64,000 nucleotides of DNA from Squalus acanthias (lineage: Eukaryota), in NCBI GenBank assembly GCA_030390025.1, contig CM059432.1:100008001-100072000 (forward strand), written 5' to 3'. Positions 9,666 through 58,526 of this stretch are shown piece by piece (positions within the stretch are counted from its first letter, which is position 1; the number at the start of each line of letters is the position of its first letter). The position numbers and the translations under genes were made by a program. The notes beneath the pieces are model-generated. The model was given only the letters and a program-made list of their open reading frames with translations. It had not been told where the DNA came from and searched no databases.

Positions 9666-9807
9666 AGTCTTGCCACCACGGAAGCAAACTCCCATTCCTG
9701 ACAGGTTGTCCGTGAGCACCACATCAGACTCCAGTTCCAATGACGGAAACCCCAGATCCCGATGGTGAACAGTTCCCCACCTTACCATTTCACTGTCATA
9801 AAACATC

Positions 9808-10550
9808 GGGCCGAAAATTGATCCCGGGACGCGAGAGTACGCACTGCGTACTCTCGCGTATTCCCACTCCAATTGCCGGTTTTCTGCATGCCCTGCGCAT
9901 GCGCTGAAAACCGGCAATTGCTCTTCTGAAAAGGGGGCGGGTCCTGGGTGCATCGCGTGCACGCTACAGGCTGCGCGCACGCTGTGCACTTCATGCTTTG
10001 GACGCGCAGGTAAGTAGGGAAGATTTTGGAAATGAAAAAAGGAGGAGTAAGACCCGCTTTTAAGAAGGTAAGTAGTGAATTAAGTATTTTTTTGAATTTT
10101 TTTTTACAGGTATATCTTTTTTAGAGACTTTAAAGACAGGTAAGTTTATTTTTATAACTTTTTAAAAGATTTTAAATTTTTTCAAAAATTTAATTTTTTA
10201 TTTAAAATGGTTAATTTAATTAACTATACTTATTTTATTAATGTGATGGTTTTTTTTTTAAATTTAATTGAGGTTTAGCTATTATTTTGGGGGGGTGTAA
10301 GATTCATAGATTTCACAGCCATGCTGTGAGACTTATGAATGGAAGATGGTGTGCTGCCATTGGCTCTATTGAGTCACGTGATCCCACAGCTCGCACGAAT
10401 TCACTACGCCGCTGGGATACGCAAGCCCAGCACAGCTGATGTCTGGAACATCAAGTTCGTGCGAGCTGGATCTGAAAAAGCACAAGCGAGGTGAGACATC
10501 GCGGGGAAGGCTTACCCCCGCGGGAACAGAGCGAGATCAATTTCTGGGCC
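9808..10550 (+). mobile_element. Harbinger-derived MITE family M1, copy 1
   Basis: 16-bp imperfect TIRs gggccgaaaattgatc / gatcaatttctgggcc; ATC TSD; near-identical copies at 12480 and 46280, more diverged copy at 47485. Confidence 0.92.
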
Positions 10551-11429
10551 ATCACAGTGCCATCAGCACAAAGCTGAAATGAAAGCTACCACAAAAGAAA
10601 CATTCCAAATATAATTTATCAATTATTATTTTGAATCTTACATATCAAAGTCAAGTAATCACCCTTGTGCATTCCCTTAGTGTCTGTCTTTTATGTTTCT
10701 TTGCCTATTCTATTGCCCCAATGTAGTTGTTGGGGGTTTTCTCTCTGCCCCAACACAGACGGAGACGAGCACGTACTGGTTTCAAGCAATCTTTATTCAA
10801 GCACGTGCAGGGAGAGGCTCTCTCAGCCACAGCTGAGACGAGAGTCTAATTTTTACATTCGAGCTTATATACAATCTTACATCTTGTTTCCTTCACATCT
10901 TTGGGACTTGGCCAATTAATTGTCCAAGTCACGTACACTTAATCACATCTCCACAAAACCAGAGGGCCGTATATTCCGCTCGGAGGCTTCCCACTGACGG
11001 AAGCCCCCGACCTGCAAAAAAGAACCGCATCGATCTTAATGCTCTGGGCCCATGTAATCTTCCAATTTAATCCTGAGGACTCCTGGGCAGCATATGACAT
11101 CACGCCGCCCAGGAGCGCAGCGTGCATGGAGCCTAGGGCTTCGCGCGTAGGGGAGACCCGCCCTCAAAAGTTATATTTGCATAGGCCACGCCCCCGATTT
11201 TTTTTCAACTCTTCAGAAGCATTCGAAACTGAAAGTAGCTGCAAAACTCAATGGTAAGTTGTTTCTTTATAGTTTTTTGAATCTTTTGTAAACTTTTAGA
11301 AACTTTTAAAGACTTTTACATGATTTGAAGAATCTTAAATAGTTTTAAAGAGATTTGAAGCAATTTAAAGATTTTTAAAAGCCCTGAAAACATTTTTTTT
11401 CATTCATTTTAATTAATCAGCAAAGTGAA

Positions 11430-11681: not shown

Positions 11682-12479
11682 GTTTGTACAGTTATTAGAA
11701 AAGTCAACTGTAACATTTCTTTAAATTTAACTGAACTAGTTTTAAAAAGCTCTTAGATGCATGTGTGTTGTCAAGTGACTTTATTATCCAGGCATGTTGT
11801 TAGTAAAGATGTTACTATGGCGCTTAATCAGATAAATGAGTCTCTCGTTTGACTCTTGCTGTTGCTTGAAACAGTTTCTGCTGCCATTACTTTGGCTCCC
11901 GCAGAACCGCCCTTACCTGCTCTCAGCACAGAAACAGTGCAGGCCCACGAGACAGCAGCTCCACCAATCCTGATGCAAGCAAATGTTGCCTTTCAGCAGC
12001 AGCAGCAGCAGCAGCAGCAACCCTGTCACGAGGCAATTGCTGAAGGTCAAGAGATGGCACACAGGGGCCTTTCAATTGGCAGCAGAGGGCTCCGGTCACG
12101 GGGAAGGGGAAAGTGCAGGAGACAGTAGGTTGTCACCTTTTGCACAATCCACCTCCTTTGACCCTCAGGCACAGATGCGAGGGGGCAAATCATTCAACTC
12201 TTTAATGTTTCGTTTTATTTAAATGTTAAATGTTGTCGTTGCTTTTTTTATTGAAATATATATTTGTGACTGAAAGTGTGTGTAACCATTTTGTTTAAAA
12301 AGTACAGCCTCTAGTCACTTTGAAAATAATTTCAACTTTTTTATTTGCAAAAATATTTAAAATTACAACTGTTTGAAAATTAGAAAATACTGTGGCTAGT
12401 TTCCATCTTGAATGTCTTTATTGCACTAAGAAACAAAAAAGTCACTTTAAACTGTTTACAAACTTTATTCAAAAAAAAT

Positions 12480-13221
12480 GGGCCGAAAATTGATCCCGGG
12501 ACGCGAGAGTACGCACTGCATACTCTCGCGTATTCCCACTCCAATTGCCGGTTTTCTGCATGCCCTGCGCATGCGCTGAAAACCGGCAATTGCTCTTCCG
12601 AAAAGGGGGCGGGGCCTGGCTGCATCGCGTGCGCGCTACAGGCTGCGCGCACGCTGTGCACTTCATGCTTTGGACGCGCAGGTAAGTAGGGAAGATTTTG
12701 GAAATGTAAAAAGGAGGAGTAAGACCCGCTTTTAAGAAGGTAAGTAGTGAATTAAGTATTTTTTTGAATTTTTTTTTACAGGTATATCTTTTTTATAGAC
12801 TTTAAAGACAGGTAAGTTTATTTTTATAACTTTTTAAAAGATTTTAAATTTTTTCAAAAATTTAATTTTTTATTTAAAATGGTTAATTTAATTAACTATA
12901 CTTATTTTATTAATGTGATGGTTTTTTTTTAATTTAATTGAGGTTTAGCTGTTATTTTGGGGGGGTGTAAGATTCATAAGTCTCTCAGCCATGCTGTGAG
13001 ACTTATGAATGGAAGATGGTGTGCTGCCATTGGCTCTAACTGAGTCACGTGATCCCACAGCTCGCACGAATTAACTACGCCGCTGGGATACGCAAGCCCA
13101 GCACAGCTGATGTCTGGAACATCAATTTCGTGCGAGCTGGATCAGAAAAAGCATAAGCGAGGTGAGACATCGCGGGAAAGGCTTACCCCCGCGGGAACAG
13201 AGCGAGATCAATTTCTGGGCC
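12480..13221 (+). mobile_element. MITE M1 copy 2
   Basis: Near-identical to 9808-10550; flanks AAT/ATT. Confidence 0.92.
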
Positions 13222-13410
13222 ATTATGTTTGCGAATGTTTGAAAAGTAGAAAATAGCTAGTTAACATGTAAAAGTTAAAAATTAAGAACATCAAAACTGA
13301 ACCTCAAAAGTCTTTGATGCTGCAATAAAAGTTCACTGTTTCACTTTAAATTGTGTCTGTTCCTTTCTTTGCCTTGCTGGGGGAGGGGGAGGGAAAAGGC
13401 AACACTATCA

Positions 13411-16795: not shown

Positions 16796-17364
16796 ATTGA
16801 AGAATTCTCACAGACAGCAAACCAGGAAGTAAAATACACTGATTTTCCTTCACTTTTAAATCATTTTACAGAGAGCGAAATAAAGATTTGGACATACACA
16901 TGGGATTAAGGTAGAAGCTGAAATATCATAAATAAACTTTAAAAACATTATTATATTAGAAACCTGTGGAATTTTTTTATCATAATGGAAAACATTGACA
17001 TTCCACAAAAATAAAATTAGTTTTCAGGGCCAGAATGGTTGTTCAGCAGTAATTATGACTCAGTGTGCCGTTAAAAACTCAGTTACACCTCATTCAACAA
17101 GGCTTAACTTTTTTGGGGGTTTTAATAGCGATATTCCAGCGTAAAAGGGGAAGTTTTCATCAGTTCAGTGATTTCAATTGATTGCCGGCTCCAGGGAGTT
17201 CAACAGCGCACCCTGTGGAGGAGCAGGGGATGGCTGACAGCAACTTCTGCATTTCCGTGTTTAACTGCAGCTGTGCGTACTCCAGAAGTTGCTGTCAGAT
17301 TCACAGTTGTAATGACGGCGAACACTGAGAGTTTTGTCGTCATTGCAACCACAAATTCTGGGCC
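16796..17364 (+). mobile_element. Partial non-autonomous TIR element (family M3)
   Basis: Ends aaattctgggcc; homologous to 59555-60158 and, inverted, 55751-55960. Confidence 0.65.
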
Positions 17365-38860: not shown

Positions 38861-39720
38861 TATGACACAAAACTTGGAAGTATAGTGAACAGTGAGAGGG
38901 ATAGTGATAGACTTCAACAAGACATAGACAGGCTGGTGGAATGGACAGACACGTGGCAGATGAAATTTAAAGGTCACCTGAGGAAGGGGCGATCGATAGT
39001 TCGAAAGCTTGTGATTTCAAATAAAACTGTTGGACTATAACCTGGTGTTGTGCGACCTCTCAATTTTGTCCACCCCAGTCCAACACCGGCATCTCCGCTT
39101 CATAAATAGAGGCATAGAGTACAAAGCAAGGAAGTTATGATGAACCTTTATAAAACACTGGTTCGGCCTCAACTGGAGTATTGTGTCCAATTCTGGGCAC
39201 CGCACTTTAGGAAGGATGTTAAGGCCTTAGAGAGGGTGCAGAAAAGATATACAAGAATGGTTCCAGGGATGAGGGACTTCAGTTACGTGGATAGACTGGA
39301 GAAGCTGGGGTTGTTCTCCTTAGAGCAGAGAAGGTTGAGAGGAGATTTGATAGAAGTGTTCAAAATCATGAGGTGTCTAGACAGAGTAGATAGAGAGAAA
39401 CTGTTCCCATTGGTGGAAGGGTCGAGAACCAGAGGACACAGATTTAAGGTGATAGGCAGAAGAACCAAAGGCGACATGAGGTAAACTTTTTTACGCAGCG
39501 AATGGTTAGGATCTGGAATTTATTGCCTGAAAGTGTGGTGGAGGCAGATTCAATCATGGCTTTCAAAAGGAAATTGGATAAGTACCTGAAGGAAAAATAT
39601 TTGCAGGGCTATGGGGAAAGGGCGGGGGAGTGGGACGAGCTGAAGTGCTCTTGCAGAGAGTCGGCATGGGATCGATGGGCCGAATGGCCTCCTTCTGTGC
39701 TGTAACCATTTTATGATTCA
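38861..39720 (+). mobile_element. CR1 LINE 3' portion with an internal segment replaced by a Penelope pseudo-LTR
   Basis: DTKLGSIVNS..WQMKF, then ORFs 39137-39484 and 39502-39705. Confidence 0.88.
38974..39098 (+). mobile_element. Solo Penelope pseudo-LTR piece with hammerhead motif (38974-39014, weakened stem II)
   Basis: Matches 58180-58266; tcac-ctgagga..gaaa-gc-tt-gtga. Confidence 0.8.
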
Positions 39721-45875: not shown

Positions 45876-46279
45876 GCACATTTCAAGCTGGTCATATTGC
45901 TTAAAGCCTGTATTACAAGCTTCCCTCATACTGCTTCTGCGGTGTTAAACAGGTGAGAAAGGAAGCAAATTGAGGTCACCATCAGCTGAAATCTGAGCAG
46001 TGAAAAAGATGGTGAGTACATGAGTAGTATGGAATGGCAAGAAGCTAAAGAGGAGAAGCAAATAACAGGAAGAACATTTGAAGGAAGTATTTGTAAACTC
46101 TACAATCTTGGTTCATGCGATGTTCAAAATAAAAAATTGATTTGTCACTGATTTTCTTTGAGATTACCCTTGTTTTTGGGAGGTTTCTTTTTCCTAGTTT
46201 TTAATGCTAAAAAACAAAAACTGTAAAACACCCAAATAAAAAATTGTCAATAAAAACTATAAAGGTTCTTAAGTATGAT

Positions 46280-47023
46280 GGCCCAGAAATTGATCTCGCT
46301 CTGTTCCCGCGGGGGTAAGCCTTCCCCGCGATCTCTCACCTCGCTTATGCTTTTTCAGATCCAGCTCGCACGAACTTGATGTTCCAGACATCAGCTGTGC
46401 TGGGCTTGCGTATCCCAGCGGCGTAGTGAATTCGTGCGAGCTGTGGGATCACGTGACTCAGTTAGAGCCAATGGCAGCACACCATCTTCCATTCATAAGT
46501 CTCACAGCATAGCTGTGAAATCTATGAATCTTACACCCCCCCAAAATAACAGCTAAACCTCAATTAAATTTAAAAAAAAAACCATCACATTAATAAAATA
46601 AGTATAGTTAATTAAATTAACCATTTTAAATAAAAAATTAAATTTTTGAAAAAATTTAAAATCTTTTAAAAAGTTATAAAAATAAACTTACCTGTCTTTA
46701 AAGTCTATAAAAAAGATATACCTGTAAAAAAAAATTCAAAAAAATACTTAATTCACTACTTACCTTCTTAAAAGCGGGTCTTACTCCTCCTTTTTACATT
46801 TCCAAAATCTTCCCTACTTACCTGCGCGTCCAAAGCATGAAGTGCACAGCGTGCGCGCAGCCTGTAGCGCGCACGCGATGCAGCCAGGCCCCGCCCCCTT
46901 TTCGGAAGAGCAATTGCCGGTTTTCAGCGCATGCGCAGGGCATGCAGAAAACCGGCAATTGGAGTGGGAATACGCGAGAGTACGCAGTGCGTACTCCCGC
47001 GTCCCGGGATCAATTTTCGGCCC
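46280..47023 (-). mobile_element. MITE M1 copy 3 (inverted)
   Basis: Reverse complement of 9808-10550 and 12480-13221; flanks GAT/AAT. Confidence 0.92.
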
Positions 47024-47484
47024 AATATGTTATTTATATGTTAGTTGATCATGAGGGTGGGGTGAGAATATGTAGCGAGGAATTGAACCCAATTCAAAGT
47101 CTAAATTGGGTCAGTTCGAGGCAACAGCAGAATAATAACATTTGGGCCAATTTGAACAGGAGTTATGTGTGAAAGAATTCTTTTGTTTGCTATTTGTAGG
47201 AAAGGCTAAATAGTTATATAAAGTTTGTGTTTACAATTTTGCTACGAGTAGCAGACAGAAGAAATCATCCAAGATGGTTTCTATATTGCATTAAAATAAA
47301 AATAAGTGGGTGTCATTTGAAGTCAATGTAGAGTCAAATTGGGCGGGGTGCATAACAGGCAACCGATCCCATCCCATCAATTTCCCACTGGATGAGTTAG
47401 ATTACATTTACCCCATGTGTATCCCCATCTGCAGGGATTCTGGAGCTAGAGAAGCTCCTGCACAGAGCACACTAGTTGCACAAT

Positions 47485-54590: not shown

Positions 54591-55989
54591 GATCAGCTGG
54601 AAAATCATGGAAATGGACTTCAATTGAAATAAAAATCAGGAGAGATGTAAAACAGGGGATAGCAAATTGGCAGCCCATTTTAGACATTACACTATCGCAC
54701 AAAGTCAAAATTACCCCCAATGTCTTCACTGTATTGCGAAGCGTGAACTTCGCGGTTTATAAATTGGCAAAGTAGCTTTACCAATCTTAATAAAATAATA
54801 TGCACTTATTAAGGCAAAGATTAAACTGAGTAATTGAGTCCTGTATTTTGTACTTAGAAATGTGTGGAGCGGTAAAGTAGTTTACAGATCCAGTGACAGA
54901 GGAAGTCATTTAAACAGATGAGATGTATTCCCTGATATCACAGAAATGTCATTAACTGCATCAGTAAAATCTGAAACTGCAGAGGGCACTGCAATATTCC
55001 ATTCCAGATACAATCAAAGGTACTCATGGATGTTTTCAGTGAATTGGAAAGCTCAGAAAGAAGAGTTCGAGGCCACATTTGAATAGAAGAGTTTTTGAAA
55101 TGGCCTATATTTTCATGTTTAGTCTGCGATTGTGCAAATATCTAATTTTATCGCTACCAAAGTGAAAACTTGTAAAAAGAAATGGCCTCTACATTCCCAC
55201 ATCACAATATGCTATTTATTTATTTTTGCACATTAGATAGCATAAAAGATTGATCCAGAGATAATTGTAATAAGGACAAATGTTTTATCAGTTTGACTCT
55301 GGTGATTATTAAAACCACAAAAATATCTAGACACATTGCACTAAGGTACTGATGGCAAGTCAGATTGCTGTAGCCTAATTCGTATACCAACAACGCCTGT
55401 ACATCAAGTGATGGTTAACCATATCTGAGTTATATAAATAGATGAAATTCCAGTGGTGACGGTCAAACAAGATTTCACAATACAAGATATCTAATGCGTG
55501 AAACTTGAGGCTGGCATTTCAGCGAGGTTTGGCTGGAAGATATAATTTTTAGATGCAGCCACAGCAACTCTTAGACTCTTGATAACAAATATGGAGATCA
55601 AACTCAAGTGCAAATAATGTTTGGTACAGCCATAACCATTATCTTGTAGAGGAATGCCCATCCACATTCATTGTTTGCCCCATTATAAATCAGTTCAAAT
55701 ATGATCATGAAACTAAATAGCTGAATATTTGTAACTGAATAGACTTTAATGGCCTGGAATTTGGGTAACTGTCAGCGTTCGCAGTCATTACTCTGTAAAA
55801 CTGACAGCAACTTCTGGAGTCGCACAGCTGCAGTTAAACACAGCAATCCAGAAGTTGCTGTCAGTGATACCCTGCTCCTCCACAGGGTGCGCTGTTGCAG
55901 TCCTCGCAGATGGAAATCAATTAGAAATGACTGAATTGATGTGAACTTCAACTTTTTACACACTATTTATATATATCTACTGATATATA

Positions 55990-56812
55990 TAGCACATATC
56001 CACTCCATCACCAAAACTGCCTATTTCCACCTCCGTAACATCACCTGTCTCTGCCCTTGCCTCAGCTCATCTGCTTCTGAAACCCTCATCCATGCCTTTA
56101 TTACCTCTAGACTTGACTATTACAATGCTCTCCTGGCCGGCCTTCCAACTTCCACCCTACATCCTGAGCTCATCCAATACTCTGCTGCCCGTGTCCTAAC
56201 TCGCACGAAGTCCTGTTTACCCATCACCCCTGTGCTCATTGACCTACATTGGCTCCCAGTGCAGCAACGCCTCGATTTTAAATTTCTCATCCTTGGTTTC
56301 AAATCCATCCATGGCCTTGCCCCATCCTATCTCTTTAATCTCCTCCACCCCTACAACCAACAATCCCTATAAGCTGCGCAGCCGCGCAGCTCTTTGCCAG
56401 TCCCATGCAGCTCGGGACCGGCTTTTGCAATGTTAATGTTCGTGCATGCGCGAATCTGTGAATGGCACCCAAAAAAAATTATAGGGAACAGCCCTCCGAG
56501 ATCTCTACGCTACTCCAATTCCGGCTTCTTGTGCATCCCCGATTTTAATCGCTCCACCATTGCCGGCCGTGCTTTTAGCTGCCTAGGTCCTAAGCACTGG
56601 AATTTCCTCCTTAAACCTCTCTGCCTCTCTACCTCTCTCTCCTCCTTTAAGACGCTCCTTAAAACCTACCTCTTTGACCAAGGTTTTGGTCACCTGTTCT
56701 AATATCTCCTTATGTGACTCTACGTCAAATTTTGTTTGATAACGCTCCTGTGAAGCACCTTCAGACATTTTATTACGTTAAAGGTGCTATATAAATACAA
56801 TTTGCTGTTGTT
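55990..56812 (+). mobile_element. L2 LINE 3' end, with a ~130-bp short-TIR insert (ccctataa / ttataggg) at ~56360-56490
   Basis: HIHSITKTAYFHLRNI, LIHAFITSRLDY.NALLAGLP, LHWLPVQQRLDFK, AFS.LGP..WN, FKTLLKTYLF. Confidence 0.88.
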
Positions 56813-56893
56813 GCACAATCCTCCCCTGTTAGTTTATGTTAAAATTGAGAGGTCGCACAACACCAGGTTATAGTCCAACAGTTTTATTTGAAA

Positions 56894-56931
56894 TCACAAG
56901 CTTTCGGAACTATCGCTCCTTCCTCAGGTGA
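56894..56931 (-). ncRNA. Minimal hammerhead ribozyme motif (left arm)
   Basis: Mirror image of 58180-58217. Confidence 0.75.
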
Positions 56932-58179
56932 AGTAAATTGGATACAGAATCGTCAGAGCATATATAGATGGAAAAAAAAGCATGTGTACTTTACAATTGC
57001 AGACCAATAAATTAAATCATCCTGACTATCTGCCGAGGTGTGATAAAGTTAATTAAGTCAGCCAGGAAGGTACCACATCAAAAGACATAGCAAGATACAA
57101 CTGAGACAATGAGGTGAAGTCGCAGGGGTTCTAACGTGTCAAAAGCTGCCGTCTGTATGTAAAACGAAAAGCTTTAAAAAAAAAAAATTTACTTTTTTAC
57201 TGGGAAAATTTTTACTTTTTTACTGGGAATCACATCTGTGAACAAGCTAACGACGACTCAAGTCCGGATCACGTCATGTATCGTGACATAAACCCAAGAT
57301 CCCGATTGAGACCGTCTTCATGAGTGCAGAACTTGGCTATCAGTTTCTGCTCGATGATTTTGCGTTGTCGTGTGTTTCTAAGGTTGCCTTGGAGAACGCT
57401 TACCCGCAGATCCGAGGCTGAATGTCCTTGACTGCTGAAGTGTTCCCCGACTGGGAGGTAACAATCCTGCCTGGCGATTGTTGCGCGGTGCTCGTTCATA
57501 CGTTGTCTCAGTGTCTGCATGGTCTCGCCGATGTACCATGCCGCGGTGCATTCTTTCCTGCAAGGTACATCGTGGTACATCGGCGAGACCATGCAGACAC
57601 TGAGACAACGTATGAACGAGCACCGCGCAACAATCGCCAGGCAGGATTGTTACCTCCCAGTCGGGGAACACTTCAGCAGTCAAGGACATTCAGCCTCGGA
57701 TCTGCGGGTAAGCGTTCTCCAAGGCAACCTTAGAAACACACGACAACGCAAAATCATCGAGCAGAAACTGATAGCCAAGTTCTGCACTCATGAAGACGGT
57801 CTCAATCGGGATCTTGGGTTTATGTCACGATACATGACGTGATCCGGACTTGAGTCGTCGTTAGCTTGTTCACAGATGTGATTCCCAGTAAAAAAGTAAA
57901 AATTTTCCCAGTAAAAAAGTAAATTTTTTTTTTTTAAAGCTTTTCGTTTTACATACAGACGGCAGCTTTTGACACGTTAGAACCCCTGCGACTTCACCTC
58001 ATTGTCTCAGTTGTATCTTGCTATGTCTTTTGATGTGGTACCTTCCTGGCTGACTTAATTAACTTTATCACACCTCGGCAGATAGTCAGGATGATTTAAT
58101 TTATTGGTCTGCAATTGTAAAGTACACATGCTTTTTTTTCCATCTATATATGCTCTGACGATTCTGTATCCAATTTACT

Positions 58180-58217
58180 TCACCTGAGGAAGGAGCGATA
58201 GTTCCGAAAGCTTGTGA
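58180..58217 (+). ncRNA. Minimal hammerhead ribozyme motif (right arm)
   Basis: UCAC-CUGAGGA-A-GGAGC(gaua)GUUCC-GAAA-GC-UU-GUGA; stem I UCAC/GUGA; palindromic AAGCUU in place of stem III. Confidence 0.75.
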
Positions 58218-58526
58218 TTTCAAATAAAACTGTTGGACTATAACCTGGTGTTGTGCGACCTCTCAAGTTTATGTTAACACAGTCCTCTCTCCCATTCATG
58301 CTGGCACATTCTCTCGCCCTTCTTCTCTTCATTCTGGAGCATTCCTTCCCTCAGTTTATACTGTTAATGTTCACTCCTAACCCGTAGTCCTTGCCAGAAA
58401 TCTTGTCCTTTCCCCCCAGTTCATGCCAATGCCATTTCCCCTCCCCCTAGTTCATATTGGCACTCTCTGCACAATGGAAGAAAGTGTACATCGACTTAAA
58501 AAAGAAATGCTCACCGATTTAACAAA

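Follow-up and report, generated by a model that had tools for sequence, protein, structure and literature searches.

A young tail-less head-to-head insertion of a Penelope-like element in Squalus acanthias and the family to which it belongs

Penelope-like elements that carry an endonuclease (EN+) are known for insertions of a peculiar layout. An inverted 5'-truncated copy together with a tail on one side only is typical of them (PMC8557442, scheme in the legend of Fig. 2), as is a CCHH motif whose two cysteines lie between GIY and YIG (PMC8557442). The Adineta elements Pen2 and Pen2a have inverted pLTRs inside one target site duplication (TSD), with an optional tail on one of them (PMC3846280), and minimal hammerheads have been described in pLTRs, with pairs lying 100-700 bp apart on opposite strands (PMC4209133). 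In Drosophila virilis, siRNAs were mapped to the inverted parts of rearranged Penelope copies (PMC3681739). In vitro work on the anole element PAc has shown that both target strands are cut and extended and that two start sites bound the tail, with an uncleaved RNA as substrate and a predicted dimer (PMC11167929).

Both the head-to-head layout and the siRNA idea are already published for Penelope-like elements, and the origin of their inverted copies and tails is stated as open (PMC8557442, PMC11167929). The accessible text of PMC11167929 contains neither an inverted-copy model nor a TG-N16-CA target symmetry, and a term search of the accessible part of bioRxiv 10.64898/2026.07.22.740005 returned nothing relevant. 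No explicit model of two-ended priming for Penelope-like elements was found in the freely accessible main texts searched.

The palindrome and its insertion site

The locus under study lies in a stretch of 64,000 nucleotides from Squalus acanthias (contig CM059432.1, positions 100,008,001 to 100,072,000), referred to as the window, whose numbering is used below. It is a single, young insertion of a Penelope-like element of the endonuclease-bearing type, its two arms joined head to head. Element positions are counted from the short end site S (position 0); the tail runs to T at about +40, ending at the start codon of the ORF. The features of the locus are:

56827-56828, forward strand: TG at -4/-3 of the symmetric target motif (flank comparison)
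56831-56842, forward strand: left TSD copy, 12 nt (anti-diagonal comparison; one 12-mer at the empty site in runs X1, X3 and X5)
56843-57563, reverse strand: left, longer arm, a 5'-truncated Penelope-like element without tail (sequence comparison)
56894-56931, reverse strand: putative minimal type I hammerhead motif of the left arm (mirror of 58180-58217)
57269-57562, reverse strand: what remains of the endonuclease C-terminus, CRKECTAAWYIG... up to its stop codon (ORF translation; equals the end of the 892-aa ORF of the donor L085)
57539-57563, reverse strand: first part of the spacer, 25 nt that are native to the element and occur in the left arm only (sequence comparison)
57564-57572, forward strand: second part of the spacer, a templated 9-nt repeat of 57574-57582 situated at the inversion junction (sequence comparison)
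57573-58266, forward strand: right, shorter arm, which begins at WYIG and reaches end site S (0), without tail (sequence comparison)
57851, forward strand: C>T at a CpG, common to the left arm (57260) and private on the haplotype of the locus
58180-58217, forward strand: putative minimal type I hammerhead motif of the right arm (sequence and fold)
58266-58277, forward strand: right TSD copy, 12 nt (anti-diagonal comparison; empty site)
58280-58281, forward strand: CA at +3/+4 of the symmetric target motif (flank comparison)

An exact anti-diagonal comparison gave two arms of 694 nt each (56845-57538 and 57573-58266) with no mismatch, separated by 34 nt (57539-57572) and bounded by the 12-mer AGTTTATGTTAA, which occurs in the window at 56831-56842 and 58266-58277 only. 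Arms, spacer and TSD had been described in these terms in the original prediction, to which only minor overlaps at the boundaries have to be added: the first A of the right TSD (58266) is common to the right arm, and the left arm has two further element bases (56843-56844) plus a 2-base overlap with the TSD. Likewise, both the YIG motif and the hammerhead motif that were said to delimit each arm are present in both. Starting at the CxxxC of the GIY-YIG domain, the left arm covers the 3' UTR and the hammerhead motif and reaches S (+2 to +4), and the right arm is nested inside it at both ends. The spacer consists mostly of native element sequence, with the 9-nt repeat making up the remainder; its first part extends the left arm, with the codons C-R-K-E-C-T-A-A, and is therefore not foreign. 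An exact search for the 28-mer across the centre junction, which speaks for that junction only, found it once in the 3.7-Gb genome, so that there were no further copies with the same centre of the kind by which a MITE-like self-copying palindromic unit would be recognised. Another locus (L005, G000:C1721) has a 6-nt tandem duplication where its inversion joins; it lies at about -693, which is also the site of the 9-nt duplication.

The arm fragments encode no working protein. Their ORF matched the Pfam GIY-YIG model weakly (E 0.009, 16.7 bits, under the curated cut-off of 22.6), and this model found the window fragment only, with no match in the full-length 892-aa protein. The motif at 58180-58217 has a stem I (TCAC/GTGA), CTGAGGA, a stem II of 5 bp, GAAA and no stem III. 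A minimal type I hammerhead is built in this way, from the cores CUGANGA and GAAA with stems I and II alone, and the motif may thus be regarded as a putative ribozyme. The predicted cut falls after 58213, 53 nt before the end of the arm. Its folding z of -1.13 is not significant by folding alone, and no hammerhead was matched in Rfam at E<=1. A miRNA identity was rejected, the Rfam hits being hairpin-driven and below their gathering scores.

Of twenty public runs listed, among which there was no small-RNA run, five were compared with the locus, as contigs only; run X6 reaches the repeat part only. In X1 and X3, which represent one sample, and in X5, which comes from another sample and study, an unbroken contig of 426-430 nt connects the two flanks, right to left, by a single 12-mer. 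This single 12-mer shows that the TSD is an exact duplication and that the insertion is polymorphic. Genotyping of the empty site had been suggested in the original prediction, and two other samples do carry it. Its claim of one very recent integration agrees both with their lack of the insertion and with the arms themselves, which differ from the family majority by 1 substitution in 694 nt. No junction of the filled allele was seen in the contig pieces listed from the public runs examined, so that the filled allele is documented by the assembly alone. This would be expected if a single insertion had been mirrored by chimeric reads during assembly; however, both outer junctions lie at the end site of the family and have a TSD in agreement with the empty site as verified, the two flanks are different, and dozens of other loci have the same stereotyped layout, which makes such an artefact very improbable. 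The locus is an ordinary, non-coding, polymorphic insertion.

The insertion follows directly on a decayed LINE-like fragment (55935-56830), presumably L2/CR1-like, whose ORF at 55935-56372 gave no match in Pfam. A short inverted repeat with 24-nt arms (92%) lies at 55795-55870, inside a repeat also present at 17143-17333. Elsewhere in the window, older fragments of the element of this locus are found at 38974-39063 and 78-209 (93% and 89%), and three 750-bp copies of about 98% identity (9798-10554, 12479-13226 and 46275-47033) represent another young repeat family.

The element family, its donor and its targets

A 32-mer from the arm has 1284 exact matches in the genome, and a 30-mer gave at least 3280. 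An intact donor is found at L085 (G000:C2:10236700-10245000), where a 3139-nt tandem unit contains an 892-aa ORF encoding a reverse transcriptase (RVT_1 match at E 1.4e-8) together with a GIY-YIG endonuclease at its C-terminus, with the same C-terminal residues as in the arms. As in EN+ Penelope-like elements, both domains are combined in this single ORF, in which VVYLIRCRKECTAAWYIG is followed by two His (NEH, GEH) to give the CCHH motif. In addition, partial tandems of the 3139-nt unit that form pLTRs, inverted 5'-truncated copies and a one-sided tail are all present in the family, and the TSD of 12 nt has been checked against the empty site. The original assignment to the Penelope-like elements is thus borne out; from motif likeness we assume a place in the Penelope/Poseidon clade. 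Among the matches listed, three-unit tandems at 3139-nt spacing occur at C7:138.55 Mb and in C1494. A family that is very young and has intact 892-aa donors permits predictions that can be counted, namely on end sites, arm lengths, a symmetric target and a hotspot of inner ends.

The target was analysed in 24 pairs whose TSD measures 12 nt exactly and proved to be two-fold symmetric, with T at -4 in 21, G at -3 in 23, C at +3 in all 24 and A at +4 in 21 of them. The form TG-N2-[12]-N2-CA also fits the locus under study. Many loci (L064, L069, L092, L118, L129, L163 and others) are independent insertions in the same 12-mer within copies of another abundant repeat, which we take to be CR1/L2-like, and this recurrent 12-mer fits the symmetric motif as a target hotspot.

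Inner ends, including those of single copies and of longer arms, cluster at -722..-683 in 16 loci against 4.2 expected (P 9e-6), within limits that were chosen after seeing the data. By set (defined below), D alone contributes 11 against 1.7 expected, whereas A and B alone give 5 against 2.5, which is not significant (P 0.11). The inner ends of the locus, at about -717 and -691, both fall inside this hotspot, which explains why its arms begin at the YIG motif. RNA folding near the hotspot revealed no outstanding local minimum and lends no support to a hairpin that stalls the reverse transcriptase. There may be a second cluster of inner ends at -1042..-1003, with 9 loci in 40 nt.

Head-to-head pairs and the origin of the two arms

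Set A, the unbiased set, comprises all 75 loci behind the first 100 listed of the 1284 matches of the 32-mer. It contains 34 head-to-head units (that in L123 being a neighbour of the probe match) and two loci, L097 and L144, in which an inverted piece of the tail only lies beside an S arm, giving 36 in 75. The head-to-head layout is therefore routine and accounts for about half of the sampled family loci. A search of the genome for other TSD-flanked palindromic copies had been proposed in the original prediction, whose surprise at a long palindrome is not supported: the layout is routine and published, and older pairs persist with diverged arms.

Further pairs came from 30-mer matches (set B, 13 pairs), mostly from the 694-nt query (set C, 14 pairs) and from minor-allele probes, classified by reading (set D, 32 pairs). 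L104/L173, L106 and L115, which are truncated or cut by the locus edge, were kept outside the pair counts. In 80 of the 93 other pairs (A 31, B 9, C 14, D 26) one arm ends at T and the other at S; L165 and L168 also look like T/S pairs, were mis-parsed and stand outside the 80. The S arm is the longer one in 40 of these 80, so that the tail sits on the shorter arm, the tail arm is longer in 23, and the two are equal within 12 nt in 17. The imbalance of 40:23 has a P of 0.04 (0.07 without set C), and in set A alone the three classes number 16, 6 and 9 (P 0.05 for 16:6). Deletions arising later at the centre would not be expected to favour the S arm. The arms are not nested in L137 and L257, and in L137, L236, L245, L247, L248 and L257 one of the arms has an internal start, where microhomology to the target is often present. 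The end of single copies is mostly at S, in five copies of set A at T, and nearly all units have a TSD of 12-15 nt. Two S ends, and hence no tail, are found in 2 of 94 units, the locus under study and L255, whose arms measure 0.7 and 5.8 kb.

Variants shared between the arms bear on the number of templates. At 57851 the family has C in 3265 and T in 15 of at least 3280 exact matches, and both arms here have T; inspection of all 11 other T loci placed them on other haplotypes, so that on its own haplotype the C>T change is confined to this locus. Independent insertion of the two arms, back to back, might be imagined in a family of such abundance, but it is extremely improbable, since both arms carry this rare allele, one TSD bounds both of them, and no tail-to-tail pair within 5 kb was present among the 100 matches listed. 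In 34 pairs, selected because both arms matched, minor alleles at -308 and -455 are common to both arms. Allele-discordant pairs were absent from 60 loci examined at +/-1.5 kb, and 10 unpaired matches checked at full length (5.6 kb) included one, the old copy L272. T-run lengths vary from 8 to 16 across loci, with a mean difference within pairs of 0.45 as compared to 2.42 after shuffling (P 4e-5, 11 pairs). The shared minor alleles suggest that both arms of a pair point to one RNA.

A different source of the shared variant would be arm-to-arm gene conversion in an ordinary insertion with one tail and one S end, the tail having been lost later. The C>T is a CpG transition as is typical of genomic decay, and truncated outer ends do occur in the family (L073, L083 and L248). 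However, the deletion would have had to stop exactly at S while sparing the TSD, and the older pairs L172 (25 differences in 594 nt), L239 and L272 have kept arm-specific differences, indicating that conversion is not routine and that such palindromes can persist; we regard this history as very improbable. The arms of L073 (G000:C1:147241900-147243900) end at -53, where the hammerhead is predicted to cut, and at -37, and no TSD was found there.

We consider it rather probable that the two arms are separate cDNAs, each primed from one of the cut target ends and likely on the same RNA. A dimeric enzyme with reverse transcriptase and endonuclease would make cuts in the two strands that are staggered by 12 nt, and reverse transcription would be primed by either 3' end. 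In the usual case one cDNA would start at T, beside the start codon of the ORF, and the other at S, some 40 nt upstream; at the locus under study both would have started at S and come to a stop in the family hotspot, some 690-720 nt upstream, before a head-to-head junction was formed with the 9-nt templated duplication. Priming from both nicks at two known start sites accounts for the asymmetric classes, the target symmetry and the one-sided tail. What counts against it is that double priming at nearly the same RNA site would need strand displacement, an ability still hypothetical in these enzymes. For the family as a whole, it is quite likely that both nicks prime on a single RNA and that the T-primed enzyme follows behind and displaces the S-primed cDNA. 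Whether Penelope-like elements in general use such two-ended target-primed reverse transcription at TG-N2-[12]-N2-CA, with a dimer, one RNA and displacement by the trailing enzyme, appears evenly balanced.

In the original prediction the palindrome was explained by a cDNA that folded back and was copied on itself. Spelled out for this locus, such a cDNA, primed at S from the left target end, would have reached about -717, snapped back, slipped once to leave the 9-nt duplication and then copied itself as far as the point where it had begun. For the locus copy this fits in several respects, as the long arm encloses the short one at both ends around a loop of only 25 nt, the spacer can be read as cDNA from the left only, the private C>T is in both arms, and an S/S unit is the product expected of S-primed cDNA. 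Self-priming is, moreover, the published reading of junction palindromes (PMC3846280). The junction is self-complementary, albeit imperfectly (12/13), but the same homology would also join two separate cDNAs, and microhomology examined across pairs does not separate the two; in addition, the restart after the 9-nt duplication would have lacked microhomology. At the level of the family, the 23 pairs with a longer tail arm and the 17 equal ones also fit, whereas the 40 with the tail on the short arm cannot be products of fold-back, because a copy of the long arm cannot bear a tail that the long arm lacks. Nor can it give the tail-only inversions or the non-nested pairs, so that it would have to be a second, rare route. 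Furthermore, as most single copies end at S, common fold-back should yield many S/S pairs, and the unequal arms of L255 would be hard to make in this way, suggesting that S/S units can arise without it. Fold-back is thus disfavoured as the general route, where the commonest asymmetric class speaks against it, and for this locus it ranks second, as a possible but doubtful explanation.

If priming from both target ends is correct, head-to-head palindromes would be the default product, arising in about half of the insertions, and the tail would tell which primer was which, a tail-less copy showing that both primers can use the upstream site. The rare tail-less copies are the best place to tell fold-back from two-ended priming.

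Comparison with known systems

The value of the locus lies in the anatomy of its family and in its rare tail-less form, not in the palindrome as such. It resembles the inverted-pLTR insertions of EN+ elements in that a 5'-truncated inverted copy adjoins at the 5' end and the whole unit lies in one TSD, in the hammerhead motif within the pLTR, and in the 30-40-nt tail that most family copies have at one end. In contrast to these, the locus copy is tail-less at both ends, and its arms are ORF-truncated stubs of almost equal length. The architecture of its putative hammerheads is that given in PMC4209133.

With PAc, the Poseidon element of Anolis carolinensis, the family shares two end sites about 40 nt apart that bound the tail and an AT-rich target (PMC11167929). 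An uncleaved RNA template would be a further likeness, as the arms of the locus run 53 nt past the predicted hammerhead cut. The ORF of the family, however, begins where the tail ends and lies downstream of the hammerhead; that of PAc has its start in stem II.

Like the rearranged Penelope copies of D. virilis, the locus has long inverted repeats formed on insertion, for which dsRNA and siRNA have been considered (PMC3681739); there siRNAs were mapped, whereas a role of the hairpin of this locus in siRNA production is a candidate by analogy. The putative RNA run X7, available as contigs only and possibly lacking the insertion, showed no cover over the unique left flank (56386-56514).

In L1 twin priming, both target ends prime on one RNA, which results in an inversion with microhomology at the junction inside one TSD, and the two halves do not overlap. 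Here, in contrast, the primers would start within about 40 nt of each other, so that the arms overlap and form a palindrome.
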